Virus record (IMG/VR): IMGVR_UViG_3300045988_119787
Coordinates: 10,557 to 74,556 of that record
Reading direction: 5' to 3' (one strand)
Length of the DNA stretch: 64,000 nucleotides
DNA from: a virus
Shown: positions 12,001-63,065 of the stretch, piece after piece
Numbering within the stretch: the first letter of the stretch is position 1
How the letters are laid out: every line of letters starts with the position of its first letter
The notes under the pieces: generated by a model
Seen by the model: the letters and a program-made list of their open reading frames with translations, nothing else
The model's database searches: none
Told to the model about the DNA's origin: nothing
Position numbers and translations under genes: made by a program

Positions 12001-15000
12001 GCAAGGGTGAACCGGGCTTCTGGAATGGTATCAAAAACAAGGTATCTGATTTCCTTCATGAAATCGGTTATCGTATTGCTCCTAATACTAAAGATGTGAA
12101 GTATCTGCTCTGGTTGAGCAAGAACTTGCAGAAAAATCCGAATGACCCTTATTGGAAGCTGAGAGCCGAGGCGGTGAAATTCCGTCTCGACCATGATCGT
12201 GTGCCTGCTGTCGTGGCGCATGATGGTATGTTCTACGGAAATGACGGTAAGGTCCGCAGTATGGAGAGCATGACCAAGAGCGAATGGAACGAGGCTACAG
12301 ACGGACAGATTCACTTCCGTACTACCCCATCTGCCGGCACAGCACTTGACAGATACCACCGTTCGCTGGATGAGCACGGCTATATGTTCACCGAGAGCTA
12401 TATGGATAATATGCTTTCGTTGAAGAAGTTGATGAATGCGATTGTGCCAGATAAGAAGATTGAGGATATTGCTTCTTCGGAGAATCCTTATATACTGCAG
12501 AACACCATGCAGGGTGCGATGAGTGATGCGGCTCAGATGTTTGAGCGCAACGTAATGAAGCCGCTTGACAAGGCGATGGCTGGTGTGCTGGATGCCTTTG
12601 ATGGCAAGAAGGATGATGAGAAGATTAGAAACTTCAATCTCTACATGATTACCAAGCATGGTTTGGAGCGAAACAGAGTGTTCTTTGTTCGTGACTTCCT
12701 TAGACAGATGAGAATGTACGAGAAGAAGAAGCAGGATGCAGACATCTTGGAGAACCGCTGGAGTAACGAGAAGGAACGTCTGGATAACGAACTGAATGCT
12801 GGTAACATCGACCTGAAGGAGTACTACAGACAGATAGACGAGTTTATCAACAACGAAATCGACCCAGACTATAAGGCTGGCGAACACGACTATTCGGGTA
12901 TTCACGCTATACAAGAGGTAGCAAAGTCTTCTGACCCATACGATGATGCAGAGGCTATCGCTAGCGTGATGGATTCGGAAGCTAAGATGGAGAGCATCAA
13001 GAAGGGAGCTGTGAAGGACTATTGGGATAAGGTGAAGGCTGCAACCCAGTATTCGATTGACAGCGACTACAAGAATGGTATCATCAGCAAGGAGTTGCAC
13101 GGTCATGTATCTAATATGTTCAACTGGTATGTGCCTTTGAGAAAGTATGATGAGGCTACTGCAGAAGATACTTATGGCTACATTACTGAGCAGGGAGACC
13201 CGAAGAGTTACATCGGAAGCACCATCATGAGAGCAAGAGGACACAAATATCTGAGTGAGACAAATGTGCTGGCGCAGATTGGTGCGATGGGTAACAGAGC
13301 TATCAAGAACGGCGGTATGAATGCTATCCGTCAGGCTTTCGCAAGATTCGCGCGAAATAATTCGGGCAATAATCTGATTACAGAAACGAGTGTATGGTAT
13401 GAGAAGGACCCAATGACCGGTATTGTTTATGAGCGCTATCCTGATATTCCTGAGGACGCTACACCAGACGAAATCAACCAGATAGTTGCAGACTTCAATA
13501 CAGACATGAAGGCAAAGGCTGCACAGGGCTTGGCATCGAAGGTTTACCGCAGGGGCAGTATCGGCTATAAGTTCCAAAGAGCTGAGAATAAATCACAGCA
13601 TATCGTAGACGTGAAGATTGCCGGCAAGACTCATTCTTTTGTTATCAACGGAAATCCCAGAGCAGCGCAGGCATTGAATGGGTTGCTGGAGAACTCTAGC
13701 GCCAAGGGATTCATGAAACCTTTGAGCACTATTTCTAGAATGATGGCACAGCTCTGTACTTCATACAACCCTGAGTTCGTGATGAGAAACGCCTTCCGTG
13801 ATGCTGAGTTTGCTTCGAGCAACGTTACATCGAAGGAAGGTGCAAGATACGGGGCACTCTGGGCTAAGTACTACGCACAGCTGGGTCTGTATAAGGGCGC
13901 ATCGAATATCAGCTTGAAGGATTTCAGCGGTTCTACGGGTTTGGGATTGTTCGCAAAGTATCGTAACGGCACACTTGATATTTCTGACAAGGTTCAGAGA
14001 TACTTCAAGGAGTTCATGGAGAACGGCGGTGAGACTGGTTGGGTTCAGATCAAGAACATGAAGGATTGGACCAAGGAATACAAGAAAGACGTGAAGGACG
14101 AAAGAAGCAAGCTGAACAAGGGCGGTGAACTGGTACGTGATTTCTTCTTCGGTAACTTGGAGAACGTGAATGAGGTGGCAGAGAATATCGCCCGATTCAC
14201 TACTTACTGTACGAGTCGTGATTATGGACGTTCCGTTATCCGCTCTGTCTATGATGCCAAGGAAGTATCTACCAACTTCAACCGTCATGGTAGCGGTGAT
14301 GCCGTCAAGAGTTTCAAGAACGGTGAAATGACTGGAACCAAGGCTGCAAGAAGATGGGCATACGGATTTACTTCCGGCTATCTCAGACACTGCTCTATGT
14401 TCTTCAACGCTGGTATTCAGAGTACGAACCTTCTTGCGAAGAACTTGAAGAATCATCCTGTAGGAACTTCCATCAACATGCTTGCCATTCCTTTTGCACT
14501 CGGTGCGCTGGCTGCACTTGGAAACAATGTGCTGATTGCGAGTGAGGACGAAAAGGACAGAAAGGGAGTGAAGGACCCATACGGTGAACTGCCTGACTAC
14601 GTGAGAAGGAACAATCTCTGTATCTACAAGGGAGGCGGTCAGTTTATCACGATTCCGCTTGCCATCGAGTTAAGAGCTTTCTATGGCTTGGGTGACTTGG
14701 CTGCAGGCTTGACCTTCTCGCCAAACGTGAGCGGACAGAAGAATCCTTACTTAGATGCCGTGGGCTGTATGTCGCAGCTGGTTCCTGTGATGGACTATCT
14801 CGGTAACTCTTCGGCAGGCAAAGAACCGATTAACGAGACCATCAAGGCTATCTCTCCTTCTGCCCTATCTCCATTCGTTGAATGGGAGTTAAATACCGAC
14901 TGGAAGGGTGCGCCTATTGAGAGACGTGGCGACTGGAACGAAAATTCCCCTGCTTGGCAGAGAGCCTACAAGGGTATTCCTGACGGTTATATGGCTGTAA

Positions 15001-15551
15001 ACAAATGGGTGAATGCCCAGACAAACGATGTAGCCAAGGGTAACGAGGATATGCTGGGTAATAGTTTCCTGGATATGGTAACGAACCCTAGTATGCTGAA
15101 TCATTACATCGGCGGTCTTGGCGGTGGTGCTGCTACCTTTACTGAGCGTGCTATTGGTGTTGTGAAGCATGGAAATGATACGGAAACCAAGGATATTCCT
15201 TTCCTTCGCTCCCTACTCTATACGCCTAGCGAGCAAAGCAGCTTGCAGAGAACCAAGAGCAAGTGGTATAACTACAAGGACGAAATGGAAAAGACCATGG
15301 CAAATGTGGACCGTCTGAAATCCAAGAACGTTCCGATTGATAAGAGAATCACGAATATTGGGGAATATTATCACTTCCAAAACTCCAAGGAAGCTGCCAA
15401 GGTGAGAGTAATCGAGCTGGCAGAGAAACAGATGAAGCGCTGGAAGAAGATGAGGGATAAGGCTAGCGATACAGAAAGCATCAACTTCGCTAATCAGAAT
15501 ATTGATAGGATCATGATGGATGCGGTGGACGAACTGGATAGACTGGAATAA
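3..15551 (+). CDS. Giant multidomain 'polyvalent' protein (>=5175 aa; reading frame open to the window edge, so 5'-partial): ParB-like, N6-adenine MTase, Sno/SNF2-like helicase, two zincin modules, C-terminal TM segment
   Basis: Uninterrupted ORF in frame 3 ending TAA 15549-15551. No stop lies between position 3 and the TTG at 24 used by the ORF track. Catalytic motifs are listed as sub-features. Architecture matches polyvalent and DarB-like proteins of phages and conjugative elements. Confidence 0.85.
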   Translation, partial: STGDDTSLSALGQAALGGFEHGATTGAMFGVSGAIMAPWVSKFGITGLEKSTGEKWLHGTQKLGATAAGLGVEAGTMMVADNITGDKDISFGTWLEDVVMVGAFKAGEPKNYAHIGNALYNLTHNSGGNFVIGKNTNGSPIAVDIRLTPDEKNELISSASGKNLMDAFVKVDRASKTAPRDSKYKTAYTDFMNDPDVSQSTKEKVNAAMGLFNTTRGKSYRSVNDVKNKQILEYTKNGTLLTRTSYKNADERRAILYKQKLYRDNDDMMSLIGYSKMKDMQLTDEDGNVTSLALGFLRNNGYDTSKDVTDPINAQLINDLRNPKSALYLDWEKYVDVYGSYGDLKVESADVVGGFMDTLKKMINDKGNMTVDIDNIMRKDPMKRTDQENKIFYYVKKALEDELFPSWRPHADQSASQGKTVAEEHSLGTDDPDSGVVVDELRNLRNAEQALDAAMDSNDVFKQTFEKLHQQGLTPAQIYDALIQNGLTQEELTPLAQYINANARVQGMQQATADVIEENVKSFISDWSYHGTLNGQAMNGEQALYVQDSNGRTLLVGSGDVAFDQTTGRAKEGSGDMLVCFDPNTREMVYVKADEVTLFQNQPIDQFAAEYRQRLQMKNSEPYNQAAQEQAMQDAAKPQQEQEAPQDNTTKSEDNTTKEGDLTKDDTTLTKVNTTSGKDNTTNENLAPQEQPQPSRKFADGSDVPMATDSKGRPTPDYEKMTPEQSAEILTEDFGDNAEKVVDGQIQKAEKALKDAEKMKVDYTAEPNDIMEQETLKNQTIEAAKKQLDHAQNIKKAMTAKKVAETVGKTEQTEGAHEAGSVAAQKFVNAPRLIGNKRTRMLPDGETKIKGHYEIVPAESLTPSHDVNNGYKKSEGFPTDAEGRTVNDRDYEHDKAAQQNTDQIARKYNGMAIEQVPVVSDEGIVYDGNGRTMAGQKAAKEGTDAEYINDLLENAENFGFTREQIEQSGIEHPRLVMVTDERLPYDAATFAKFNRNEKKTQSNTEQAVAKAKTLTSDEVGAIVAEIEGNGSLDAFFNNSKAINDLVKTLVDKGIIGQNEVAQMMDSPERLSAQGREYVKNLLLGSIFKPETIRMLGIDSTVKNKAINAIRSVMDNMKLGEFSLRDEIDQAIQLLYEARRGGNKVDTLLRTPSMFGEDAAKRYSSISQMMALALEGKVSDFRDLLDEYNRIAAARNTGEGDVFGEAPTKPELIKEFMDFKKWQDYGTGHSENERGNDVSGIEEPQQEASGGNEPAEAERPRVEEPEVGSLPLLPKEENPDPQFNPIEAAAAEFKKEHPLTEEEIMKADVDDLSKDMALDYQNGEVTDDLHRAIYESIYAKRKGLKAEPKVETPKSEPSADPMEAFKNAAEGFEKEKKGKAEQPKKPQQTADDAAVAASNKKVNDLWDMLKNAGKDEMSASFVGLNSRQLEVLPKLVSAMAENAYLRIKRGMHNLEDVVKEMRKEFAPASKIFKKEDVDAIYEQMMNIRYRDGEQRMSLKEWADYYEKTSPKHQENLVGDSKSAEERKMAEKKFIDVVNLQLGFKHKFNGIVELRKIAERLGLKDIKDTDLQELAETAIVKRARGIASSESTNNAEKFKRIKTLYENQPSLNQRDSERVMKQQYSTPAPYAFLADMYVKGNGKVIESALEPSAGNGMLTIGLPKDKVHVNDIDDTRLLNLNRQGFGKVTSQDGTQPFNVKPVDIVITNPPFGSATPKEYDGYKISSLEGQMAINALESMKDDGRAAIIIGGKTEYAKNGSLNPKDKAFLGYLYSHYNVEDVINVDGGLYAKQGTSYPTRIILINGRRLDENAFPPVKDKARAEAVKDYDELYKRIEDDILRGERMDSSIGGETRSAQPELDKQGAAGTPKERVRAGERGGSKPDGERESDLFDSTSVSGTHDDLENQRGTEPREDGGLSGGDTGTDRTGTEPSQSEGATAGTNEQRGAGSGGAGRNDAQPSTDEPASAGSGSGPRGQLQRVDKSVRGLSTEKVTYTPKSGNPFTLKAVMPADQQEAVNKNLEKLGDADQFLVDELGYNDKDDLYSHLAAEQVDSVALALQQAKKGNAFIIGDMTGIGKGRQAASLIRYAKKQGQVPVYFTKTAGLLSDVYRDLVDIGSPELRPFVFGSAKEAAITDSDGNVVFSLPSKSEVKRVLDYIEKNGKLPEEYDYVLTTYSQVSNGVYEFDEDGNRKERKLAKGKSFGAAALSGQKRRDAIEKLMGNAYLILDESHTAGGNSGQGNYFQHIIQKAKNVTFFSATFAKRPDNMPIYALRTAMNEGGMKSSDLIDAVKRGGATLQEIMSQTLTQCGQMIRRERDMTGVTIDWKAIDDPERVKEQREQYDSIIGLFNDIINFQKKYVSSYVDERNIELADIQSTMDIKKGTESLGIKNQPFASKAFNTVQQVLLSLKAKSAAERAIDYLKQGMKPVIALNNTNESQTGNLALGEEMDAPDLGTSLKKGLEGTLRYTQKDAKDNSESGYFKLEDLGEEAVKAYHELEKKIEQTSTGLSLSPIDVIKNELQKAGYKVGELTGRQTEFVYNDNGTVTKVKRADTDKKKLARDFNDGKIDALILNKSAATGISLHASSKYKDQKKRVMIVAQQQLDVNDEVQMRGRIDRTGQVARGAYEYVVSLIPAEQRLLMMFKAKLKSLDANTTSSQKSKFNEMEVADITNKYGDKVVKEYMAEHLDLYARMADPFGWEKTYGDDLSRINPQNLVVSGGGVGDGEAGADASKLLGRMALLRVNEQEKMLQEIGELYANEIQRLNEMGENDLEITELPLKAKTIHKEVWKQGAEPGGDNAFADNTYIEKVNMAILKKPMKASEVKASQEGLTGGKTWDEYKTEKKTAVKEYFGQKIANETQRYEERAVKAATKAKEKYIKDGKKGQEKSGMTDEQIEKNAEYQYETIYKQEKDKLDDVVKNLKEKAEMFDRVLDTFDTNQTFVLPTDMNNPNELSGFGNSYGRLIDIKITDNFSPNASSVSFATLDGRRKITFPIAGKVGAGENKADIIGAIDNMTKQAIGMGDSHLRVLNQNFDNWDRLTSNESRKNGYIVTGNLMQALVDSKDQGLGGQLVKYTTDTGEVKTGILMPDRFDPKGLTTDAPINSVTEKFELSSWHGGIDEVTSSDGEVKVKRIDNNRGYFYELRVPKSKAKGGKYFMDEDLLKLVNGNNFETRGNNMLAEFKPEQLKPVLDRLSKMGVKVQEERKTSEDEGTHFREDRGLQYSKTDTKDVKKGRIIPEDVDKNVSSQIEKKFDSTIKDIEEHTEDRDKSLFADNLESALDEFSDLGRSVIEYYKNDYERKVEKLSGQHTGGHLGGKNDGKGNKGSYLLQYYKTVLAVADRELAYRDARAKNLRETWGLQPGGAFTLGAVERIFKETNRDKGKAELFQRVLDINKRLGVNIKVSAESPKKRSGEADTNRNIDLYIDGLTKTMAPDYAAPTIMLHEMIHEVTMGAINLVKKGKAEGILTPKQIEGVKTILKIYDKVKDDKERFKEEPYGLTDAYELTAQMADSRQRKAMDLSIWDRVMNAAHEFARRGDRSILQRVKDAIKKLFEVSDKDKMDKAINDIMDDFNETIDDISMNEIEQDGFAYKVTDKDELDRLNKEKTFRMYSGMQEVDGKLYSPMAAIIDGKRTDATEIGAWMGADERPDLVKNGKFTLVKTDKNKGVGEGDVPAAYNPYMHTSTSMMNDQFTGAYARGNIKVVEWEIPESEKTSGYRAEGAKDAVGLVPWHSGSVNSLLPKDRQRQVMLSRWRKAVRVVPDSEVAESIAEQLKGTGLAIPWNVVTPNQVRELAKLGVPITTVESGRQAPETKEKFLQQMAELEQEFPQAKFVNVKMSKDAFKVWGKDGGTKFRTDHGESSYPTSSVESHVEKVAQKTGAKVNMVSSVDEITNKAAKAAIEEGRKITGWYDEKTGEVHLYMPNIHDRYTAEKTIWHEVVGHKGMRELFGEDRFNQFLRDVWYDLDKPENAELKKLVDEERRYNPLNIYDAIEEGIARLAEDGKGEPGFWNGIKNKVSDFLHEIGYRIAPNTKDVKYLLWLSKNLQKNPNDPYWKLRAEAVKFRLDHDRVPAVVAHDGMFYGNDGKVRSMESMTKSEWNEATDGQIHFRTTPSAGTALDRYHRSLDEHGYMFTESYMDNMLSLKKLMNAIVPDKKIEDIASSENPYILQNTMQGAMSDAAQMFERNVMKPLDKAMAGVLDAFDGKKDDEKIRNFNLYMITKHGLERNRVFFVRDFLRQMRMYEKKKQDADILENRWSNEKERLDNELNAGNIDLKEYYRQIDEFINNEIDPDYKAGEHDYSGIHAIQEVAKSSDPYDDAEAIASVMDSEAKMESIKKGAVKDYWDKVKAATQYSIDSDYKNGIISKELHGHVSNMFNWYVPLRKYDEATAEDTYGYITEQGDPKSYIGSTIMRARGHKYLSETNVLAQIGAMGNRAIKNGGMNAIRQAFARFARNNSGNNLITETSVWYEKDPMTGIVYERYPDIPEDATPDEINQIVADFNTDMKAKAAQGLASKVYRRGSIGYKFQRAENKSQHIVDVKIAGKTHSFVINGNPRAAQALNGLLENSSAKGFMKPLSTISRMMAQLCTSYNPEFVMRNAFRDAEFASSNVTSKEGARYGALWAKYYAQLGLYKGASNISLKDFSGSTGLGLFAKYRNGTLDISDKVQRYFKEFMENGGETGWVQIKNMKDWTKEYKKDVKDERSKLNKGGELVRDFFFGNLENVNEVAENIARFTTYCTSRDYGRSVIRSVYDAKEVSTNFNRHGSGDAVKSFKNGEMTGTKAARRWAYGFTSGYLRHCSMFFNAGIQSTNLLAKNLKNHPVGTSINMLAIPFALGALAALGNNVLIASEDEKDRKGVKDPYGELPDYVRRNNLCIYKGGGQFITIPLAIELRAFYGLGDLAAGLTFSPNVSGQKNPYLDAVGCMSQLVPVMDYLGNSSAGKEPINETIKAISPSALSPFVEWELNTDWKGAPIERRGDWNENSPAWQRAYKGIPDGYMAVNKWVNAQTNDVAKGNEDMLGNSFLDMVTNPSMLNHYIGGLGGGAATFTERAIGVVKHGNDTETKDIPFLRSLLYTPSEQSSLQRTKSKWYNYKDEMEKTMANVDRLKSKNVPIDKRITNIGEYYHFQNSKEAAKVRVIELAEKQMKRWKKMRDKASDTESINFANQNIDRIMMDAVDELDRLE
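1941..2050 (+). repeat. Degenerate tandem repeat (GATAATACCACAAAA-like, about 5 copies) encoding DNTTK-type low-complexity linker
   Basis: gataataccacaaaa occurs at 1941-1955 and 1962-1976, with diverged copies to ~2050. Protein reads DNTTKSEDNTTKEGDLTKDDTTLTKVNTTSGKDNTTNE. Confidence 0.7.
2550..3000 (+). other. ParB/Srx-like N-terminal domain within giant ORF
   Basis: HYEIVPAESLTPSHDVN...VVSDEGIVYDGNGRTMAGQKAAKEG. The DGxxRxxA-type arginine motif is typical of ParB-like nuclease/NTPase domains. Confidence 0.6.
4860..5412 (+). other. N6-adenine DNA methyltransferase domain (gamma-type motif order) within giant ORF
   Basis: Motif I LEPSAGNGMLTIG (~4944). Motif IV NPPF at 5118-5129 (VITNPPFG). 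Confidence 0.8.
5520..5940 (+). other. Disordered Gly/Ser/Glu/Arg/Thr-rich linker between MTase and helicase
   Basis: GERMDSSIGGETRSAQ...GTDRTGTEPSQSEGATAGTNEQRGAGSGGAGRNDAQPSTDEPASAGSGSGPRG; no hydrophobic core. Confidence 0.6.
6150..7900 (+). other. Strawberry-notch/SNF2-like superfamily-2 helicase core within giant ORF
   Basis: P-loop GDMTGIGKGRQAA (GIGKGR 6219-6236). DExH box LILDESHTAGG (DESH 6678-6689). Motif V-like KSAATGISLHAS. Motif VI QMRGRIDRTGQ (~7824). Confidence 0.8.
10326..10340 (+). other. Zincin motif HEMIH (first metallopeptidase-like module of giant ORF)
   Basis: PTIMLHEMIHEVTMG; codons cat gaa atg att cat. Confidence 0.55.
11802..11819 (+). other. Zincin motif HEVVGH (second metallopeptidase-like module, polyvalent-protein type)
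   Basis: ITGWYDEKTGEVHLYMPNIHDRYTAEKTIWHEVVGHKGMRELFG. Confidence 0.6.
14470..14540 (+). other. Predicted transmembrane segment near C-terminus of giant ORF
   Basis: SINMLAIPFALGALAALGNNVLIA hydrophobic stretch flanked by charged residues. Confidence 0.45.
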
Positions 15552-20992: not shown

Positions 20993-23900
20993 TTATGATA
21001 ATGAATTAATTAAATTATCAACCAAAGGAAGTCGCTCCTCTAACCATTTCTTTACACGATATATGCTATCATAATGTCCAAGATAGAATGGTCTTTCTGA
21101 ATAGTATTTTGTTACAGGAGACACGTTGGTGCAATCCTTAATAACCTTAAATGCAAGATGCTCGAATACTACATAACTACCAGCAGTATAAGTTGTATCT
21201 TTATTCCATACCTTCTGACCAGAAGCTGTGATTCCTGCATCAGTATATGTACATGGGGTATAGTATTCTGTGTTTATGTTACTATCCCTATGACAAGGAG
21301 ATTGCTTCCATCTATCATACTCCTGCTTAAAATCATCTGTTCCAATTCTAGAACACCAATCAGTAAGAAGGTTAATGATGTTGTCAGCAGTAAGTATAGC
21401 CTTTCTGAGTTCAGAATATCTTTTCTTCAACTCTGTTGCAAAATACTTATATACCCAATATGTTCCACCATATCCCTTTTTGTTTCCCATCAAGCTGATT
21501 GGCTCCATAAAATTATCTTTTGGTGAGAAGCTGAAAGTGCCATCAAAGAAATCTCCAAACACACCATCTAGGTCATAAGGATATACACCAAATCTTACTC
21601 CATTCCAAGAACCAATTTGCCAATTCTTACCAAATCCATCATAGTTAGCTATAACGTTTGAGAAACAAAGATAATCAATAATGCCATCTACATCATATCT
21701 GTTATCAATTTCATTCTTTATATCATCTTTGGTCTTGCTGCCAGCTTCTATTTGTGCTTCTACTTCAGTAAGTTCTGTATCATATTTACTTAGGGCAATG
21801 ATATACTTTTTTACTTGAAATGATAGTTCCATATTCTTATTGGAAGCATCATAACTTTCAGATGTATCATCTATAAGCTCCTGCACTTTGTTTTTGTCTG
21901 CATCATATTTACTACCATCCATACAGATAAGAGACTTAGGGTTTCTTATCTCAAATCCCTGCTCACTCATCGGATTCCATGCAGTACTTGGCAATGTACC
22001 ATTTGCAGAAAATAGGTTTTGTCTAATAAAACCATCCAAGTGTATATTCTCAGCTTTATTCTTTGACATTTTCATATTGTCACGATGTTTCTTTAATTGC
22101 CAAGAAAAAACACCTAAGAACTCTCCTTCGAAATAGACTATGCAAGGAAATCCATCAGGAAAAGTTCTTGCTTCATCACCAAAGTCATAAGCAATTTCTG
22201 CATTTTGATTTATGCCATAAGATGCAGATGTGGAATCTTTATAGTATCTCTTATAAGCCCTGTCATTATGCAATCCACGACTTTTTGATATTTCATCAAA
22301 CAATTTATAGCAAACAACTCCTGCACCTCTAAAGGCATCAGTATAATATGCCTTAAAATGAAAACTGTCTTGTGATACCCAATTACCGATTTTTACTTTG
22401 CAGGTATCATCACCAATCCATTCATCATTGCATATAACTACTGCAAAATTCTTCTTTGCCAAATAGAGTGAACTACTTCCTTGCGCATTGAGAATTACAC
22501 GTTTCTTAAAGTATATGCCTTCTAATGTCCATACTTCTATCCATGCATGTAGATTCTGGGTTTTAGATGTTGGCATGTTTGATACTCCTGAAATGTTAAC
22601 TATAGCCTTTCTTGGTTGATTTGGGATTCTTATATGATCATCATTGCTCATGTCACAAGCATTGATGTTATATCCTTTACTTTTCAAATATTTAATGAAA
22701 TCATTTCCGTCTTCAACATGGAGGCTGGCAACACGCATTTTTTTCTCAACCTTTGTACCATCTTTTTCACGGAAACCAAGAATTTTATCATCAGAATCAG
22801 TTATCAATTCCATGCGTTCCTCTTGGTCTTCAAAGGATTTTTTTGAATTTGCTACATCTTCATTGATAAGTGTTTTACCTACCTCCTTATTAACCTTTGT
22901 ATCAAACGTTTCTGATTTCAAGTCATACACATAATGGCTTCCATCATTGTATGTAGCAGAAAGAATCCTTCCGTCTGCATCTTTCTCTACTGCAAGGTAC
23001 TCAGGATTCTCCTGCAAAGAGAAAATATCAAGAAGTTCTTGTAGATTGGTATCTATTGTACCTACCTTCTCCTGCAATGATGCAAGGTCTGATTGAAGCT
23101 GAGAGATAACTTTCTTCAAGGCATTGACTGCATGAATCTCACCAATGACCTCTCCGTCTCTTCTAAGACCAAGTAATACTTTATCGTCAGTAGTAACCCA
23201 AGCAGCAAAGTATTCTTCGCTCTGAATGACGTGATACATTTCATTAAGAGGATAATATGGCTTGCCAGTTGCTCTGTAGAAGCCAAACAGTACCTTATCA
23301 TCTGAATCCACTATAGCTTTGAGAAATTCTTCATTCTCAATTATTCTAAAGCACTCTTTTACTTCATCTTCAATGAGTGATTTGCCTTCTTCCTTGTCAA
23401 CCTTTGTATCTTGAAGATTCTTGATGTCCTCTCCAAACTTAGTATTGAGACTATTGAGGTTTGCAAGAATGCTTGTAAGGGTCTGCGTATTCTCAATCTC
23501 AGCAAAGAACTTCTTCAACTCATTCATGGTATCAATGACATTTGTTGTGTCCTCATCACCCATGATGGTTGCTACTCTCTCTGCAAGAAGAGTTACTTGT
23601 GACTGCAATCTGTCCTCTACAGCACTTGTCTTACCAAATACTGGAGTGGCATCCCATTGGATACCAAAGAGAAGCTTGTCCTCTGCGTCCACCTTGGCAA
23701 AGATGAACTCTTCATTCTGAATGTAGCGGAAAGGAGTTTCTACTACAGTTCCTTCCTCATCCTTGATAGCTACTTTATCTACTACTTCCTGCATTGTGCC
23801 AAGAGTCTGCTCTGTCTGCTCTCTAGAATCATCAGCCTTCTGGGCTGCTTCATTGGCTTTTAATGTAGCTTCTTCTGCCTTGGTTGTGGCAGCTTTAGCT

Positions 23901-24265
23901 TGCTCTGTAGCCTGAGCAGATGCTGTTGTTGCATTGGTTGCTAACTGGGTAGCATTGTCAGCCGCTTCCTTTGCTGCTGTGGCTGCTGCTGTAGCTTGCT
24001 TTGCATTTTCTGTAGCTTGATCAGCTTTGGCGGTAGCTTCTTTTGCCTTCTCGGTTGCCTCATTTGATGCAGTTACAGAATTATTTATCTCTTGCCGGAT
24101 AGACGGGGCAAGCTTTTGGGCTGTAACCGCACCGTCAGCCAACTTCTCGGAAGTAATATTGCCGTCACGAATCTTGTCTTTTGTAACAGATTGGTCATTA
24201 TAATCATCTGTTTTCATCATTGGCACCATACCACCTATTTTTGTATCTTGTCTAAATGTAGGCAT
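20993..24265 (-). CDS. Tail fibre protein: N-terminal fibre motif, Ala/Thr/Lys coiled coil, five internal repeats, CotH-like C-terminal domain
   Basis: ITSEKLADGAVTAQKLAPS fibre-type motif. ATEKAKEATAKADQATENAKQATAAATAAKEAADNATQ... coiled coil. C-terminus NYDGFGKNWQIGSWNGVRFGVYPYDLDGVFG resembles the CotH core. Confidence 0.7.
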   Translation of the reverse strand: MPTFRQDTKIGGMVPMMKTDDYNDQSVTKDKIRDGNITSEKLADGAVTAQKLAPSIRQEINNSVTASNEATEKAKEATAKADQATENAKQATAAATAAKEAADNATQLATNATTASAQATEQAKAATTKAEEATLKANEAAQKADDSREQTEQTLGTMQEVVDKVAIKDEEGTVVETPFRYIQNEEFIFAKVDAEDKLLFGIQWDATPVFGKTSAVEDRLQSQVTLLAERVATIMGDEDTTNVIDTMNELKKFFAEIENTQTLTSILANLNSLNTKFGEDIKNLQDTKVDKEEGKSLIEDEVKECFRIIENEEFLKAIVDSDDKVLFGFYRATGKPYYPLNEMYHVIQSEEYFAAWVTTDDKVLLGLRRDGEVIGEIHAVNALKKVISQLQSDLASLQEKVGTIDTNLQELLDIFSLQENPEYLAVEKDADGRILSATYNDGSHYVYDLKSETFDTKVNKEVGKTLINEDVANSKKSFEDQEERMELITDSDDKILGFREKDGTKVEKKMRVASLHVEDGNDFIKYLKSKGYNINACDMSNDDHIRIPNQPRKAIVNISGVSNMPTSKTQNLHAWIEVWTLEGIYFKKRVILNAQGSSSLYLAKKNFAVVICNDEWIGDDTCKVKIGNWVSQDSFHFKAYYTDAFRGAGVVCYKLFDEISKSRGLHNDRAYKRYYKDSTSASYGINQNAEIAYDFGDEARTFPDGFPCIVYFEGEFLGVFSWQLKKHRDNMKMSKNKAENIHLDGFIRQNLFSANGTLPSTAWNPMSEQGFEIRNPKSLICMDGSKYDADKNKVQELIDDTSESYDASNKNMELSFQVKKYIIALSKYDTELTEVEAQIEAGSKTKDDIKNEIDNRYDVDGIIDYLCFSNVIANYDGFGKNWQIGSWNGVRFGVYPYDLDGVFGDFFDGTFSFSPKDNFMEPISLMGNKKGYGGTYWVYKYFATELKKRYSELRKAILTADNIINLLTDWCSRIGTDDFKQEYDRWKQSPCHRDSNINTEYYTPCTYTDAGITASGQKVWNKDTTYTAGSYVVFEHLAFKVIKDCTNVSPVTKYYSERPFYLGHYDSIYRVKKWLEERLPLVDNLINSLS
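22741..23720 (-). repeat. Five copies of a ~28-aa motif EE[FY]xxAxxDxDDK[VIL]L.G....G inside the fibre gene
   Basis: NEEFIFAKVDAEDKLLFGIQWD; NEEFLKAIVDSDDKVLFGFYRATG; SEEYFAAWVTTDDKVLLGLRRDG; NPEYLAVEKDADGRILSATYNDG; ERMELITDSDDKILGFREKDG. Confidence 0.7.
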
Positions 24266-51244: not shown

Positions 51245-51484
51245 CTACAACAAGTTAAGGCTAATAGCAGTACGTCTCTTAAAATCAAGATTCATATCTG
51301 CCATACGATACTCCAGAGCTTCAAGGTAGGTGGTCATGCCTACCGACTGCTTCACCATTAGCTTATACTGGTACTCGCCAACTTTCTGCAAGAAACCTTC
51401 CTTTTTCAAGGCAGCGTTCAACTTGCTTAAACGCTCTACTAGCTCATCGTGCTCTTCGCACATTCTTTTCTGAAAATCTTCCAT
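51245..51484 (-). CDS. Hypothetical protein
   Basis: Trimmed to ATG 51484 (MEDFQKRMCEEHDELVERLSKL...), just after the upstream stop at 51489. Confidence 0.45.
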   Translation of the reverse strand: MEDFQKRMCEEHDELVERLSKLNAALKKEGFLQKVGEYQYKLMVKQSVGMTTYLEALEYRMADMNLDFKRRTAISLNLL

Positions 51485-51488
51485 ATTA

Positions 51489-51974
51489 TTAATCTTTTTT
51501 CGGTTTAATACCCCAAGCAATACATCCAAATCTAACGTCTGTGTCAATATTTGAACCATTAAATACAATCGCGTCTCCTCCAATAGATGTTAGGGTAATA
51601 CCGATTGGTAATGAAGGATAGAGATATAGCGGAATCAAACGAAGTCCAAGAGTATTTTTCTCGTTGGCAACCTTTTTATCAAATTCATCCTTTGTAAGAT
51701 GCCCCTTGTCTAATGCAGATTGTAAGCAAGAAATTTCTTCCTCAATATCTTCCTCAGATTGCCAACGTCCAAAGTGCAAAGCTTTACATTGACTTTCCGT
51801 AAGAGTATTCCAATCAATGTCTTTCTTAAACTGTTCTTGAACTTTTTGCCAAGCATCATTGAGACTTTTGTTTTTATAATCTTCATCCCAATGATATACC
51901 TGAATGCATGCAATTTGATTTGCAAGCCATTTCAAAGTATTGTTAACCTTTTCTTCTAATGAAATTTGTTTCAT
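51489..51974 (-). CDS. Hypothetical protein
   Basis: 161-aa ORF. Confidence 0.5.
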   Translation of the reverse strand: MKQISLEEKVNNTLKWLANQIACIQVYHWDEDYKNKSLNDAWQKVQEQFKKDIDWNTLTESQCKALHFGRWQSEEDIEEEISCLQSALDKGHLTKDEFDKKVANEKNTLGLRLIPLYLYPSLPIGITLTSIGGDAIVFNGSNIDTDVRFGCIAWGIKPKKD

Positions 51975-57305: not shown

Positions 57306-57497
57306 TTATAATGTATCATACTCGCCTTCCTCTCTTCCCATATCTGCTGAGAGATTCTTGATTCGAGAGTTAAGCATATTGATTTTTCGTAGACACAGCT
57401 CGAAGTGCCTTAGTGGGCACCACGGATTGTGCTCCAGTTCTTTATATATTTCGTTCACCCGATCTTGATAGGACTGGGTTGAGAATAATTTCAGCAT
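57306..57497 (-). CDS. Small hypothetical protein, first ORF after noncoding island
   Basis: 63-aa ORF. Confidence 0.4.
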   Translation of the reverse strand: MLKLFSTQSYQDRVNEIYKELEHNPWCPLRHFELCLRKINMLNSRIKNLSADMGREEGEYDTL

Positions 57498-57525: not shown

Positions 57526-57551
57526 CCTGCCTATCCTCACGGACCAGCAGG
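57526..57551 (-). promoter_or_regulatory. Conserved-loop hairpin, copy 3 (CCTGC-UGGUCCGUGAGGAUAG-GCAGG on minus strand)
   Basis: Read directly. Loop differs from copy 1 at two transitions. The stem sequence is different but still complementary. Confidence 0.55.
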
Positions 57552-57640
57552 AGAGTAAAACTTTCAATTTATGTACAATAATAGTTGCCGCTGCAACAAT
57601 TTTCAGATTTCATGGAAAAAACCAACTAAACAAATAGAGT

Positions 57641-57748
57641 TGCAGAAGTGGGACTCGAACCCACGACTAGTTGCACGGTTTGATAAGAATATGCTAAGGA
57701 TTTATACATCTGTTACGTGCTTGCTCTAACCAACTGAGCTATTCTGCA
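57641..57748 (-). tRNA. tRNA-like gene with a 58-nt expanded arm replacing the anticodon arm and variable loop (108 nt, no encoded CCA)
   Basis: Minus strand TGCAGAA-TA-GCTC-AGTTGGTTA-GAGC-[58 nt]-GTGGG-TTCGAGT-CCCAC-TTCTGCA. Perfect 7-bp acceptor stem with canonical D and T arms. No 5-bp/7-nt anticodon stem-loop fits anywhere in the 58 nt. Confidence 0.6.
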
Positions 57749-58127
57749 AAGTTGCGGCATCATGCGCTACCATGAATTTAAGAGCCATGCTCACCGCTAG
57801 AAATGCAACAAAATTTGTTTCAACTATCAATTATGGCTAATCAACATCACACACGTGCGTTGCATTTCCTATATAAGAACTTAAATATATTCGCCTTTTT
57901 CCAATATGTCAAAGAACAAATGCCCACAAACTGGCAATGGGATTGTTTGAGAATCTGTTACATATTTAAAATGAAGGTGTTGGTAGAATGCTCGACCACA
58001 ACATTTCCTTATGGTTCGTGGCGCCTGAAAAGTATCAACGCAAACAACTATATTTCGCCACTGGTCTTTACCGCTCTTTTGTCACCGTTTCATTCGGATT
58101 TAATATAATAACAATATTTCAAAACTA

Positions 58128-58203
58128 TGGAGGCGCCAAGCGGAATCGAACCGCCGACCTCTGCAAACCTCCTTGCAGCGCTCTACCACTGAGCTAAGGC
58201 GCC
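58128..58203 (-). tRNA. tRNA-like gene with encoded CCA whose 'anticodon' hairpin displays the SD sequence (CUGCAA-GGAGGU-UUGCAG)
   Basis: Minus strand GGCGCCT-TA-GCTC-AGTGGTA-GAGC-G-CTGCAAGGAGGTTTGCAG-AGGTC-GGCGG-TTCGATT-CCGCT-TGGCGCC-T-CCA. The loop is 6 nt (6-bp stem) or 8 nt (5-bp stem), never 7, and has no U33. Confidence 0.65.
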
Positions 58204-58207
58204 AAGA

Positions 58208-58235
58208 TCACTCCTATTCTCACGAACCAGAGTGA
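58208..58235 (-). promoter_or_regulatory. Conserved-loop hairpin, copy 1 (UCACUC-UGGUUCGUGAGAAUAG-GAGUGA), 4 nt upstream of tRNA-like 2
   Basis: Read directly from the sequence. Confidence 0.55.
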
Positions 58236-58297: not shown

Positions 58298-58334
58298 CAC
58301 TCTTTCAAAACCTCCACCCTGCTCACGCAGAGTG
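58298..58334 (-). promoter_or_regulatory. Diverged hairpin copy 2 (CACUC-27-nt loop containing CGUGAG and GGUGGAGGUU-GAGUG)
   Basis: Shares GTTATT..TTCACTCTG..CGTGAG with copy 1 on the minus strand. Confidence 0.4.
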
Positions 58335-58382
58335 AAGGAAAATAACGCTTAGAATTTTTATCTAAAAGCCTAACGGCTGTCA

Positions 58383-58595
58383 TCATTGCTCTTCTACCAG
58401 TTCGGGGTACTTCTTTACGAGGATTCCCCCATATCGGTTGGTTGCAACATCACGTATATTAACAGCCAACTCACTGTTCGTTTTGAATGCTATTGCAGCA
58501 TAAACTGCCGCATCGCAGCAGCCTACCGTCTTTGCTATTTTAGCTATTTTTGATTTTCTTATCAAAATTTTCGGCTTAAAAACTATTTTATCCAT
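58383..58595 (-). CDS. Cro-like small HTH protein
   Basis: 70 aa. SKIAKIAKTVGCCDAAVYAAIAF is HTH-like. Divergent from the CI-like gene. Confidence 0.5.
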   Translation of the reverse strand: MDKIVFKPKILIRKSKIAKIAKTVGCCDAAVYAAIAFKTNSELAVNIRDVATNRYGGILVKKYPELVEEQ

Positions 58596-61732: not shown

Positions 61733-62257
61733 TTATAATTGTATTTTTTGATTAAGCAAATTGCTCTTCGGAAACATCTTTGCTCTTTCTCTGTCGGCTA
61801 CAGAAATCGCTTCTTCCAAAGTATCGTATGACTTAAAAGAAACACCATTTATTCTAACTCTATATCGTTTACCTTCAATGGTCACATTTCTGTGCTTCGT
61901 TGTAGAAGCTAGAGCGGTAGAAATATTCTGAGCATTTTCTTTTCGAGTAACCTCTCTAAGATTACACTTTCTATTATTGAGAGTATTATGGTCTATGTGA
62001 TCTACAACATTGCTTGGATTTGTCTTTTTAAAAACAACATTATGCAACCACACTTGTTTGCGCTCCAACAATTTTTGCACTTTGGTCCTCACACCATCAA
62101 TATGTCCACTACGATTGACCGCAAGATTCCAAGTTCCCTTTATAGAGGAAACAATATCTAAATCTTGCTTATCAATATAGCAAAATATCTCGTCACCTTT
62201 GTATCGAATAACCAAGGCTATAGTTTCTCCATCTATTTCTATCGCTCTATTCTTCAT
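61733..62257 (-). CDS. HNH endonuclease with AP2-like DNA-binding domain
   Basis: VDHIDHNTLNNRKCNLREVTRKENAQN (HNH_3). KRYRVRINGVSFKSYDTLEEAI (AP2-like). Confidence 0.75.
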   Translation of the reverse strand: MKNRAIEIDGETIALVIRYKGDEIFCYIDKQDLDIVSSIKGTWNLAVNRSGHIDGVRTKVQKLLERKQVWLHNVVFKKTNPSNVVDHIDHNTLNNRKCNLREVTRKENAQNISTALASTTKHRNVTIEGKRYRVRINGVSFKSYDTLEEAISVADRERAKMFPKSNLLNQKIQL

Positions 62258-62258
62258 T

Positions 62259-63065
62259 CTACTTTAGCTTGCTAATATCCAAAAATGTACTACTATTACC
62301 ACTAGTTATAACTTGTGGAATTTCACCATTCCACTTCTCAATCCACATCTTCTGCAAGATAGCAGGAGTAAGAGAAGCGGTCTTCAATTCATTCGCTTCA
62401 CGCTCAGCCTTTGCCTGCACAAGCATCTTCTCTGCTTCTGCTTTCTTCACGGCTACCTCGTTGAGAGCACGCTGCGCTTCCTGAATGGCTTTATTCTTCT
62501 GATTGACAGCTTCGACTATCGAACTTGGATATTTCAAACCAGAAGTAAGCTGCTCTAGATGGAAATGTTCATTGGCGAGAGCCTTGCTGAGCTGAGCTTC
62601 GATGGCTTTCTCCACCAAATCACGATTGCTGACGATTTGGTCGGTTGTGTATTTGTTCAGCTGAATGCGGAAAGCATCCTTCACATAGTTGAACAGAGTA
62701 CCATTCACAATATCGTCCAGCCCCTTGCGGTACTTCTTGAATACTCTTGGAGCATTGCCGTCAACCATCTTCAGTGATACGGTAGGATCCACGGTGAACT
62801 CCGAGCCATCCTTGGCATTGATGGTGAATGCAGGATAGTCGATTGTCTGAACATAGGTAGGGTACTCGTACACCTCCTCAGTGAAAGGATTGTACCACAC
62901 ACGACCAGTGACAAGACTCACATCATCCACACCCTTCTCAGAACCATAGAGGTTGACCAAGATACCCTCAGAGCCAGCATCTACACGCTCGCTACAAGAG
63001 GTAGTTGAAAACAATGCTGAACCGAGCAGCATAAACAAACACAACTGATTAATCTTTCTTTTCAT
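62259..63065 (-). CDS. SPFH/Band-7 (HflC/prohibitin-like) lipoprotein
   Basis: Signal peptide with Cys24 (LFSTTSC). SPFH-like core followed by an Ala/Glu/Lys-rich helix AIQEAQRALNEVAVKKAEAEKMLVQAKAEREANE. Confidence 0.55.
   Translation of the reverse strand: MKRKINQLCLFMLLGSALFSTTSCSERVDAGSEGILVNLYGSEKGVDDVSLVTGRVWYNPFTEEVYEYPTYVQTIDYPAFTINAKDGSEFTVDPTVSLKMVDGNAPRVFKKYRKGLDDIVNGTLFNYVKDAFRIQLNKYTTDQIVSNRDLVEKAIEAQLSKALANEHFHLEQLTSGLKYPSSIVEAVNQKNKAIQEAQRALNEVAVKKAEAEKMLVQAKAEREANELKTASLTPAILQKMWIEKWNGEIPQVITSGNSSTFLDISKLK

Follow-up and report, generated by a model that had tools for sequence, protein, structure and literature searches.

The stretch of DNA analysed here (hereafter the window) comprises 64,000 nucleotides (nt) of IMG/VR virus record IMGVR_UViG_3300045988_119787, from position 10,557 to position 74,556, and covers the greater part of a temperate phage genome of ~75 kb. 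Its portal is P22-like and shares 32-36% identity with its counterparts in BS-TP4, BKO1-TP3 and BF1-TP2, all temperate Bacteroides phages, and the contigs that encode an identical RecT protein are 74-77 kb long and come from gut metagenomes. On the minus strand, divergent from a cI-like repressor gene, lies the early operon (cro side), in which a cro-like gene is followed by ~900 nt without an open reading frame (ORF), then by ORF63 and by the NinG, antirepressor (Ant), dUTPase-like, SbcC-like and RecT genes. Our subject, tRNA-like gene 1, is part of this operon, ~850 nt upstream of Ant: it has the acceptor, D and T arms of a tRNA and, in the place of the anticodon arm, a helix closing a 38-nt loop, hereafter the cargo loop. 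Its parts are as follows (S1 to S3 are scaffold types found among the relatives, which are cited by locus number, e.g., L216):

57640-57748, minus strand: tRNA-like gene 1, cargo-bearing, 109 nt including the discriminator A73 (Rfam RF00005 match, cloverleaf fold, conservation, covariation)
57742-57748, minus strand: 5' strand of the acceptor stem, UGCAGAA, pairing over 7 base pairs (bp) with UUCUGCA at 57641-57647
57723-57739, minus strand: D arm, GCUC-AGUUGGUUA-GAGC, with G18 and G19, read from the sequence; invariant in S1-S3 except for a mismatch variant, L216
57716-57720, minus strand: 5' strand of the closing helix, GCACG, with its partner CGUGC at 57673-57677; invariant in S1-S3
57678-57715, minus strand: cargo loop, UAACAGAUGUAUAAAUCCUUAGCAUAUUCUUAUCAAAC, 38 nt; 77-87% identity on scaffolds that are 52-79% identical
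57648-57664, minus strand: T arm, GUGGG-UUCGAGU-CCCAC, read from the sequence; compensatory G:C to U:A pair in L220

Read on the minus strand, the gene is UGCAGAA-UA-GCUC-AGUUGGUUA-GAGC-(58 nt)-GUGGG-UUCGAGU-CCCAC-UUCUGCA-A. The three arms and the 58-nt expansion that separates D arm from T arm (57665-57722) are letter for letter as a preliminary description of this DNA had given them; the span it proposed, 57641-57748, was right in its coordinates and has to be extended by the discriminator A at 57640. The nucleotides typical of tRNA D and T loops (G18 G19; U54 U55 C56 .. A58) are present in AGUUGGUUA and UUCGAGU. The Rfam search which that description had proposed as a check returned the tRNA model (RF00005) at 47.6 bits over its full length (model positions 1-71; gathering score 29, E=4.5e-7 computed for the window) and no other family, the alignment placing a 51-nt insertion within the anticodon arm. 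Folded for minimum free energy, the RNA forms a cloverleaf, with GCACG (57720-57716) and CGUGC (57677-57673) paired to each other. The thermodynamic signal itself is modest and unremarkable (the whole RNA has z=-1.84, the insert by itself z=-0.88), so that it is the covariance-model score and the comparative data that make the case for tRNA-like gene 1 as a real feature.

These comparative data come from 28 viral and 21 metagenome contigs, about 50 in all, which carry the gene at the same position. A pattern of D arm and T arm with a 45-75-nt middle gave 11 syntenic viral contigs among the matches listed, with flanks 70-95% identical to the window; a metagenome scan added the 21, and further relatives were recovered with the loop motif as a scan pattern and through loci that encode ORF63 relatives. 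Within the main group (S1), the tRNA body is invariant although the intergenic flanks diverge by 20-30%. The preliminary description had allowed for a locus absent or decayed in close relatives; the gene is instead found in every syntenic relative, with its helices intact. Where the acceptor letters do change, pairing is kept: L166 has CGCAACA/UGUUGCG, followed by an A73-CCA encoded in the genome, and L220 has CCUCGCA/UGCGAGG together with the T-stem change from G:C to U:A. Among 13 distinct sequences, 100% of the acceptor-helix cells are paired and six of the seven pairs show compensatory double changes, a level reached by none of 500 shuffles (0/500), and pairing falls to 27-49% when the 3' partners are slid. 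Covariation at homologous loci, another check named beforehand, is thus seen in the acceptor stem and in one T-stem pair, and not in the inner helix that had been drawn within the expanded arm. Conservation at the same position together with compensatory change argues that tRNA-like gene 1 is, on this comparative evidence, a real tRNA-shaped RNA under selection and not a pseudogene.

The loop is retained as well, and on more than one scaffold. The sequence AACAGAUGUGUAAAUCCUUAAC..AUUCUUAUCAAA is kept at ~80% identity on at least five different scaffolds, and it lies upstream of ORF63 in all 27 viral loci that encode an ORF63 relative, 13 of which are without the S1 tRNA body. Scaffold S4, found at twelve loci, occupies the slot directly after the three-way junction that precedes the gene, and reads CCGCCUA-UG-GUGU-AACGGAA-GCAC-G-CCCG-(loop)-CGGG-..-UAGG-UUCGACU-CCUA-..GGUGG; its minimum-free-energy fold is a different, more degenerate cloverleaf. 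Scaffold S5, that of L234, shows yet another set of D arm, T arm and closing helix. Both differ from the window in acceptor, D arm, T arm and closing helix while sitting in the same syntenic slot, and their loops are 77-85% identical to that of the window vs. ~52% for the scaffold. The closing helix is itself retained with changed letters (CCCG/CGGG in S4, CCGAU/AUCGG in S5).

Within the loop, four blocks do not vary in S1-S3, namely GUAA, which follows the closing helix, AAA, CCUUA and AUUCUUAUCAA, and the consensus that runs across scaffold replacements is AACAGA(A)UGUGUAAAUCCUUAAC(1-4 nt)A(U/A)UCUUAUCAAA. The RNAalifold consensus leaves the loop unpaired across all 39 alignment columns (38 nt in the window). 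At the base of the arm, position 27 pairs with the U preceding AGUC (A:U or G:U in 13 of 13 sequences), giving a 3'-side bulge, AAC, which ranges from 1 to 4 nt among relatives. Of the expanded arm as first drawn, then, the GCACG/CGUGC closing helix stands, and the inner 4-bp helix with its 21-nt loop does not: GAUG/UAUC is present in the minimum-free-energy fold, but in relatives two of its four pairs are broken without compensation (84.6% of cells paired). An alternative loop helix, AUGU/GCAU, is likewise broken in several relatives and uncompensated, so that both inner helices are only 81-85% paired.

Because the loop letters are kept through replacement of the whole scaffold, the loop is likely the functional part, and the simplest reading of the alignments is that the tRNA fold would be a carrier and the loop its sequence-specific working part. 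Judged from these sequences, the expanded arm is not unconstrained filler, a point missed in the preliminary description, and what the comparison adds is that selection appears to keep the sequence of the arm as well as the tRNA body.

A coding reading of the loop was rejected on either strand, as an indel in L061 breaks the frame and the plus-strand frame stops within the D arm. On the complement strand the loop (57678-57715) reads ..AAGAAU AUG CUA AGG AUU UAU ACA UCU GUU.., and the differences between the window, L011 and L014 sit at synonymous sites of this frame (UAU/UAC, CUA/UUA), too few to count. An antisense RNA that follows the start of a coding target would be expected to leave such differences; a point to the contrary is that the complement AUG is GCG in L166 and L220, and ACG in L160.

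What the 58 nt do not provide is an anticodon arm. An exhaustive scan with G-U pairs allowed returned no 5-bp stem closing a loop of 6-9 nt, the best candidates pairing at four of five positions, in agreement with an earlier search by hand for a 5-bp stem with a 7-nt loop, and the 58 nt hold no canonical anticodon hairpin (5-bp stem, 7-nt loop, U33 and anticodon). ARAGORN at default settings leaves the gene uncalled. Run with intron models, as had been proposed, the program calls a "tRNA-Leu(CAA), intron at 35, 31 nt", which would fit an intron-containing tRNA whose insert is spliced out by some unknown route to give a decoding tRNA, e.g., Leu-CAA. Among the relatives, however, this call is inconsistent: the anticodon is CAA in the window, L011, L014 and L061 and UCA in L016, L030 and L059, the 3' edge of the loop is UCAAAC, UCAAC or UCAACC, and the putative loop is UUCAAAC, one base shorter, or UUCAACC. 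A tRNA-Leu(CAA) with an intron was rejected because neither the anticodon nor the loop length is conserved. More generally, removal of one contiguous segment does not restore the same canonical anticodon stem-loop in the relatives, and a conserved anticodon loop is not reconstituted in them, which also disposes of the novel short intron first considered.

A precedent for spliced phage tRNAs comes from the Lak megaphages of Prevotella, whose tRNAs carry "enigmatic introns" of 79-141 nt (Devoto et al. 2019; PMC6784885, bioRxiv 10.1101/356790), and these are the closest published precedent for tRNA-like gene 1. In both cases phages of gut Bacteroidota have tRNA-shaped genes whose anticodon arm contains a large, highly conserved insertion without a match in Rfam. 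There is also a weak resemblance at the 5' edge, where the insert begins UAACAGA..UGUAU.AAAUC in the window and UAACA..GAGUAAAC in L016, vs. UAACAGAGUAAACUGUAUUAAAUC at the start of the Lak tRNA-Phe intron; the window and L016 matches are not independent, so that this resemblance is suggestive only. The Lak inserts, however, follow an intact canonical anticodon at 37/38, contain a hexaloop hairpin and a T-arm-like hairpin, and have insert-free alleles, whereas tRNA-like gene 1, with its 38-nt insert in a ~75-kb temperate phage, has no anticodon loop and not one anticodon-loop nucleotide before the insert. No insert-free or ancestral allele (same D and T arms, normal-length middle) was found in the viral contigs, in any relative or elsewhere in the collections scanned, the scan of viral contigs for normal-length middles returning only ordinary Asn, Lys, Ile, Met and suppressor tRNAs.

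Other features of introns are missing too. In S4 and S5, the closing helix directly abuts the conserved loop, and the would-be intron is better conserved than the would-be exons (77-85% vs. ~52%), the opposite of what is expected, namely exons at least as conserved as the intron. Judged by eye and without a motif scan, the arm does not contain a bulge-helix-bulge (two 3-nt bulges, 4 bp apart); its sole bulge, AAC, flanks a 5-bp helix and is variable in length. With 38-51 nt, against a core of about 200 nt or more, the insert is too short for a group I intron, as had been said at the outset, and for self-splicing, and Rfam at E<=10 gave it no match to an intron, a ribozyme or any other family. 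Taken together, the sequences indicate that tRNA-like gene 1 is probably not an intron-containing tRNA, and we regard the spliced reading as very improbable.

The view that the tRNA body is preserved while decoding has been lost, and that the role is a non-decoding one, has therefore held up, with the body under selection and the anticodon loop not conserved; a gene lacking decoding capacity, with a non-decoding role as its best reading, is supported by the alignments. Since the acceptor pairs vary (three different acceptors) and A73 alone is constant, specific aminoacylation is neither supported nor excluded by these sequences. The gene does not have the marks of a tmRNA: its pair 3:70 is C:G (U:A in L220) and not G3:U70, ARAGORN calls no tmRNA, and a permuted-tmRNA match in Rfam (12.9 bits, E=3.8) lies elsewhere in the region.

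Around tRNA-like gene 1, the ~900 nt between the cro-like gene and ORF63 form a mosaic of conserved structured RNA modules, of which the gene is one, a setting that the preliminary description had likewise missed. The features nearest to it are:

57884-57912, minus strand: promoter-like TTGACA-17-TATATT, 11 of 12 consensus matches; a pattern match only, the consensus of Bacteroides-like hosts being different
57800-57869, minus strand: long hairpin HpA (GGAAAUGCAAC...GUUGCAUUUC), upstream of the three-way junction; compensatory changes
57754-57797, minus strand: three-way junction with outer stem GCGG/CCGC, 5 nt upstream of the 5' end of the tRNA-like gene
57584-57597, minus strand: hairpin HpB, GUUGC-AGCG-GCAAC, downstream of the tRNA-like gene; conserved, flagged as terminator-like
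57526-57551, minus strand: hairpin HpC, CCUGCUGGUCC-GUGA-GGAUAGGCAGG, with a GUGA tetraloop, immediately upstream of ORF63; in all relatives
57306-57497, minus strand: ORF63, a small conserved protein (..EIYK.LE.NPWC.L.HFEL..), always downstream of the cargo RNA

The TTGAC box of the promoter-like site is conserved in relatives and its second hexamer is not; the site is a possible promoter for HpA, the junction and the tRNA-like RNA. The HpA stem is retained with other letters in variants (GCGAGGA...UCCUUCGC). The hairpins of the three-way junction are GAGC-AUG-GCUC and UCAUG-GUAGCG-CAUGA; compensatory changes occur at three of its pairs (RNAalifold, 10 sequences), and it precedes every scaffold type for which upstream sequence was read (S1-S5). 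HpB has wobble and compensatory variants (GUUGU, GUAAC; GUGC/GCAC in L166 and L220). ORF63 had zero matches in Pfam, PHROGs or NCBIfam, and blastn of the region against 50,697 phage records also returned zero matches, so that a cultured-phage homologue was not found. HpC is the last of three minus-strand copies of a hairpin motif, CUSGUYC-GNGA-GRAUAGG (58311-58338, 58208-58235 and 57526-57551), with a GNRA tetraloop and an internal G-A mismatch; the copies sit after the cro-like gene, just before a second tRNA-like gene and just before ORF63, a placement that recalls, by analogy, nut/boxB-type sites.

The second gene, tRNA-like 2 (58131-58203, minus strand), is 383 nt upstream of tRNA-like gene 1 and matches the Rfam tRNA model at 52.4 bits. 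Its body is intact, with an encoded U73-CCA, and its anticodon loop, AGGAGGUU, has 8 nt and no U33; ARAGORN reports a "tRNA-???" with anticodon gagg. In near-identical relatives, this loop is AGGAGGU, ACAAAGGU, AGUAGGUU or AGGAUGCU, with ~200 nt on each side almost invariant. In L166 and L220, that slot is taken by another tRNA-like element, whose anticodon stem is mismatched; L030 and L160 have an acceptor/T-arm element enclosing ~75 nt there, and the L016 group has an unrelated element. Between the two tRNA-like genes lies a conserved structured module of ~115 nt (57973-58086, minus strand), which starts GGUGAYAAAAGAGCGGUA.., continues with a variable hairpin on a covarying base (GUGGCG/CGCCAC or GUGGCA/UGCCAC) and GAACCAUAAGGAAA, and ends with a 5-bp stem and 7-nt loop, AUGUU-GUGGUCG-AGCAU (variants AUAGC-UUUGGCG-GCUAU), followed by UUCUACCAACACCUU. 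For this module, the three-way junction and the insert, Rfam gave sub-threshold noise only.

Such a setting also fits a purely cis-acting role, in which tRNA-like gene 1 would let RNase P/Z cut the early polycistronic transcript, as in tRNA punctuation, or would act with the hairpins in termination or antitermination, the excised RNA being functionless. The gene is inside the 900-nt mosaic of hairpins, three-way junction and second tRNA-like gene between the cro-like gene and ORF63/NinG/Ant, HpB looks like a terminator, and tRNA-like 2 retains its body while its anticodon loop varies freely, as would be the case for a pure processing signal. A processing signal, however, needs no 38-nt loop, and the survival of the loop through scaffold replacement would be left unexplained, which weakens the processing element first put forward as a specific role. 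We thus hold a cis-acting function as the whole explanation to be unlikely.

An anti-defence decoy or sponge, i.e., a tRNA-shaped RNA that titrates a host tRNA-targeting immune effector or a tRNA-binding factor, would suit the early-region context, as the window has a PF21825 gene and, in relatives, Tad2-like and "Sequestin" (PF21825) genes are a few kb away. Defences that cleave tRNAs, and phage tRNA counter-measures, are established (PMC13056530), and the anticodon loop of tRNA-like 2 differs between near-identical phages. The cleaving enzymes Schlafen and PARIS AriB, however, target and cut the anticodon arm (PMC13056530), and tRNA-like gene 1 has no anticodon loop to offer; a partner reading the acceptor is improbable with three different acceptors, and the conserved part is the non-tRNA loop. 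A decoy for tRNA-targeting nucleases, as initially suggested, is therefore doubtful for a gene without an anticodon loop whose acceptor and scaffold sequences vary freely, and we consider the idea distinctly unlikely. A related case is that of phage tRNAs with altered anticodon loops, which are described as evading anticodon nucleases (van den Berg et al. 2023, as cited in PMC13056530): they resemble the present genes, tRNA-like 2 in particular, in an anticodon region that departs from that of the host, and differ in that, as cited there, they still decode, whereas tRNA-like 1 and 2 lack the standard 7-nt loop with U33.

The locus also bears traces of recombination. In L234 (IMGVR_UViG_3300045988_121257, locus 680-1360), the cargo RNA on its fifth scaffold is directly followed by a 167-aa ORF that matches HNH_3 weakly (E=0.0017) and runs into a leftover 3' fragment of S1 (..AGAGTCCCACTTCTGCAAC). 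The arrangement resembles what a homing endonuclease would leave behind on inserting and co-converting the tRNA-like gene, and such events might drive the scaffold swaps. A recombinationally active site would fit a decaying tRNA pseudogene, or a functionless relic of mobile elements and homing endonucleases, but helices kept intact through compensatory change, an invariant body between diverging flanks and the presence of the gene in every relative leave this scarcely credible.

We therefore favour, with a confidence that we would put at about even, a functional non-decoding small RNA scaffolded on a tRNA, of a temperate Bacteroides-type phage, with the loop as its effector. It would be transcribed as part of the structured non-coding region on the cro side, or from a promoter inside it. 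The acceptor, D and T arms would fold into the L-shape of a tRNA, a shape that RNase P would cut at the 5' end, while RNase Z or exonucleases, together with CCA addition, would finish the 3' end. Maturation of this kind would free the RNA from the longer transcript and confer tRNA-like stability. The 5-bp helix in the place of the anticodon arm would then display the largely unstructured 38-nt loop, rich in pyrimidines and A, which would recognise its partner sequence-specifically, be it a host RNA (by base pairing) or a protein. We infer the processing by tRNA enzymes, the stability and the action in trans; a 5' end made by RNase P is suggested by the tRNA-like body and by the CCA encoded in L166, which fits tRNA-type maturation. 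As the locus adjoins the lysis-lysogeny switch of a temperate phage, such an effector could bear on prophage control.

Several observations weigh against this proposal. The relatives are syntenic phages, and their counts do not represent independent events. Rfam at E<=0.1 does not recognise S4 or S5 as tRNA; their tRNA-likeness comes from a manual parse and from the minimum-free-energy fold of S4, the fold of the S5 region being non-cloverleaf. In the S1 group, the scaffold is conserved above the loop (94% vs. 82% identity), which may mean that the sequence of the S1 body matters too or that recombination homogenises it; either way, this better-conserved scaffold suggests that both scaffold and loop are constrained. 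Last, a conserved site complementary to the loop was not found in the phage genomes, where all sites were limited to subgroups and at chance level.

The candidate pairings that we rejected include an 11-nt antisense match in the cro-like mRNA (58556-58566), an 8-nt match (AGGAUUUA) just after HpC and a two-site match within the Ant gene, none of which is conserved across subgroups, and none of the translation-start regions of the window ORFs stood out as a loop target. Pairing of the tRNA 3' end CUGCAAC with GUUGCAG of HpB is lost in L166, hence a chance match, and pairing of the purine-rich loop of tRNA-like 2 with UCCUU of the cargo is not conserved.

Among known systems, the nearest functional analogues would be the c4/CI immunity RNAs and the engineered tRNA scaffold. 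The c4 RNA of P1/P7 and the CI RNA of P4 are small structured RNAs, cut by RNase P from the early or immunity transcript, which act through exposed loops; they are encoded upstream of an antirepressor gene, and the targets complementary to their loops are in the same operon. The Ant gene downstream of tRNA-like gene 1 provides a likeness. These RNAs differ in that they are not full tRNA look-alikes and have targets in their own operon, whereas for tRNA-like gene 1 no loop complementary to a conserved same-operon target was found. The engineered "tRNA scaffold" of Ponchon and Dardel, from 2007, is reportedly a tRNA whose anticodon arm was replaced by a cargo helix and which is processed correctly and resists nucleases. 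In architecture the two are identical, each retaining the acceptor, D and T arms and bearing cargo RNA on a helix; the scaffold is a laboratory design, and tRNA-like gene 1 would be its natural counterpart.

The tRNA-like domain of tmRNA, the bacterial Y RNA YrlA, mascRNA and the tRNA-miRNA transcripts of gammaherpesviruses share with tRNA-like gene 1 a mimicry of tRNA for processing or partner recruitment without decoding, but the gene has no Rfam match to any of these four. It further differs from tmRNA, which requires G3:U70, a tag reading frame and pseudoknots, and from YrlA, which has the opposite topology and ends in a Ro-binding stem, whereas the ends of tRNA-like gene 1 form a normal acceptor stem. 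Full-text literature searches found no description of the element, which we file as a tRNA-like non-coding RNA outside every named family.

When standard tRNA finders reject a gene of this shape, it usually ends up labelled as a pseudogene or as "tRNA-???" and is ignored. In tRNA-like gene 1, selection bears on the tRNA fold and the non-tRNA loop alike, which suggests a principle, cargo RNA on a tRNA scaffold, at which engineers arrived independently and which phages may use widely. The signature of D and T arms with a 45-75-nt insert is found in at least 119 viral contigs from several unrelated families, vs. 38 matches in 185,579 species genomes, many of which are archaeal intron tRNAs (tRNA-Asn) or tandem tRNA genes. 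These contigs and families hint at a broad class of cargo-bearing tRNA-shaped RNAs, and such genes may be common in phages. We tentatively suggest, as less than an even bet, that the tRNA fold could serve phages as a natural display scaffold, open to exchange, in which a short effector RNA replaces the anticodon loop, across a broad and largely unannotated class; host tRNA-processing enzymes would cut out and stabilise the cargo, and the scaffold would swap or drift while the cargo stays. If true, this would add a new class of regulatory or counter-defence phage RNAs in abundant gut phages, offer a reading for the "enigmatic introns" of megaphage tRNAs, and provide naturally optimised scaffolds for RNA expression in Bacteroides.

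In the cultured phage BS-TP4, an unannotated 87-nt tRNA-like gene lies between gp54 and the SbcC-like gene of the equivalent early operon (PQ571277.1 58380-58466, corresponding to L209 8380-8466, minus strand; Rfam tRNA 50.5 bits, ARAGORN silent). Its acceptor, D and T arms are normal, with 37 nt (GGCGGUACGUACCCAAAUGGCCAAGAUGCAGCAGGAC) between them instead of the usual 23. Elsewhere in the BS-TP4 genome, an RT-3 RNA adjoins a reverse transcriptase gene.

Another, abundant family, with the sequence ACCCAAG..., is represented by L035 (8225-8333) and about 70 other viral loci (L002, L003, L007-L010 and others) among the matches listed; in siphovirus-like gut phages it lies between a 200-aa ORF of unknown function (phrog_17745) and a 258-aa ORF, after which comes the tape-measure gene. 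Its anticodon arm has a GACCAA/UUGGUC helix and a loop of 21 nt ending AAAUCCAG, and its variable region likewise has 21 nt; the loop CCAG pairs with CUGG of the variable region in an H-type pseudoknot, with a compensatory CCAU/AUGG in L043. The constant core of this pseudoknot, CCA vs. UGG, is like an anticodon bound to its own codon.

More tRNA-shaped families have middles of 50-75 nt (L004, L023, L027, L066, L076, L082, L113 and L057; L039, L107, L112 and L120; L135-L137, L152 and L136). One has an acceptor GGGGAAG/CUUCUCC and with it the alanine identity set of G3:U70 plus A73; another sits within large phage tRNA arrays, that of L039 counting 20 tRNAs including a CUA suppressor; and one, in Cytophagales/Flavobacteria genomes, shows a covarying AAAUUUU/AAAAUUU pairing that resembles a pseudoknot. 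The tRNA-Ile(UAU) genes of some phages (L022, L031, L037, L065, L108 and L111) combine a normal anticodon arm with a long hairpin in the variable region (e.g., GCGUCUGAUAAGCGC), a class-II-like architecture that is unusual for isoleucine tRNAs.

Elsewhere in the window, a single ORF of at least 5,175 codons (24-15551, plus strand) extends past the window start and corresponds to gp3 of BS-TP4, a "hypothetical protein" of 5,391 aa; in that phage the giant ORF is directly upstream of the portal gene, and in the window the portal is 15 kb away. The minus strand further encodes a 1,090-aa protein with a CotH kinase domain (20993-24265), the PF21825 (crAss001_48/"Sequestin") protein of the early operon (51245-51583), with Tad2-like neighbours in relatives, an HNH_3 endonuclease (61733-62257) and an SPFH/Band-7 protein (62259-63065).

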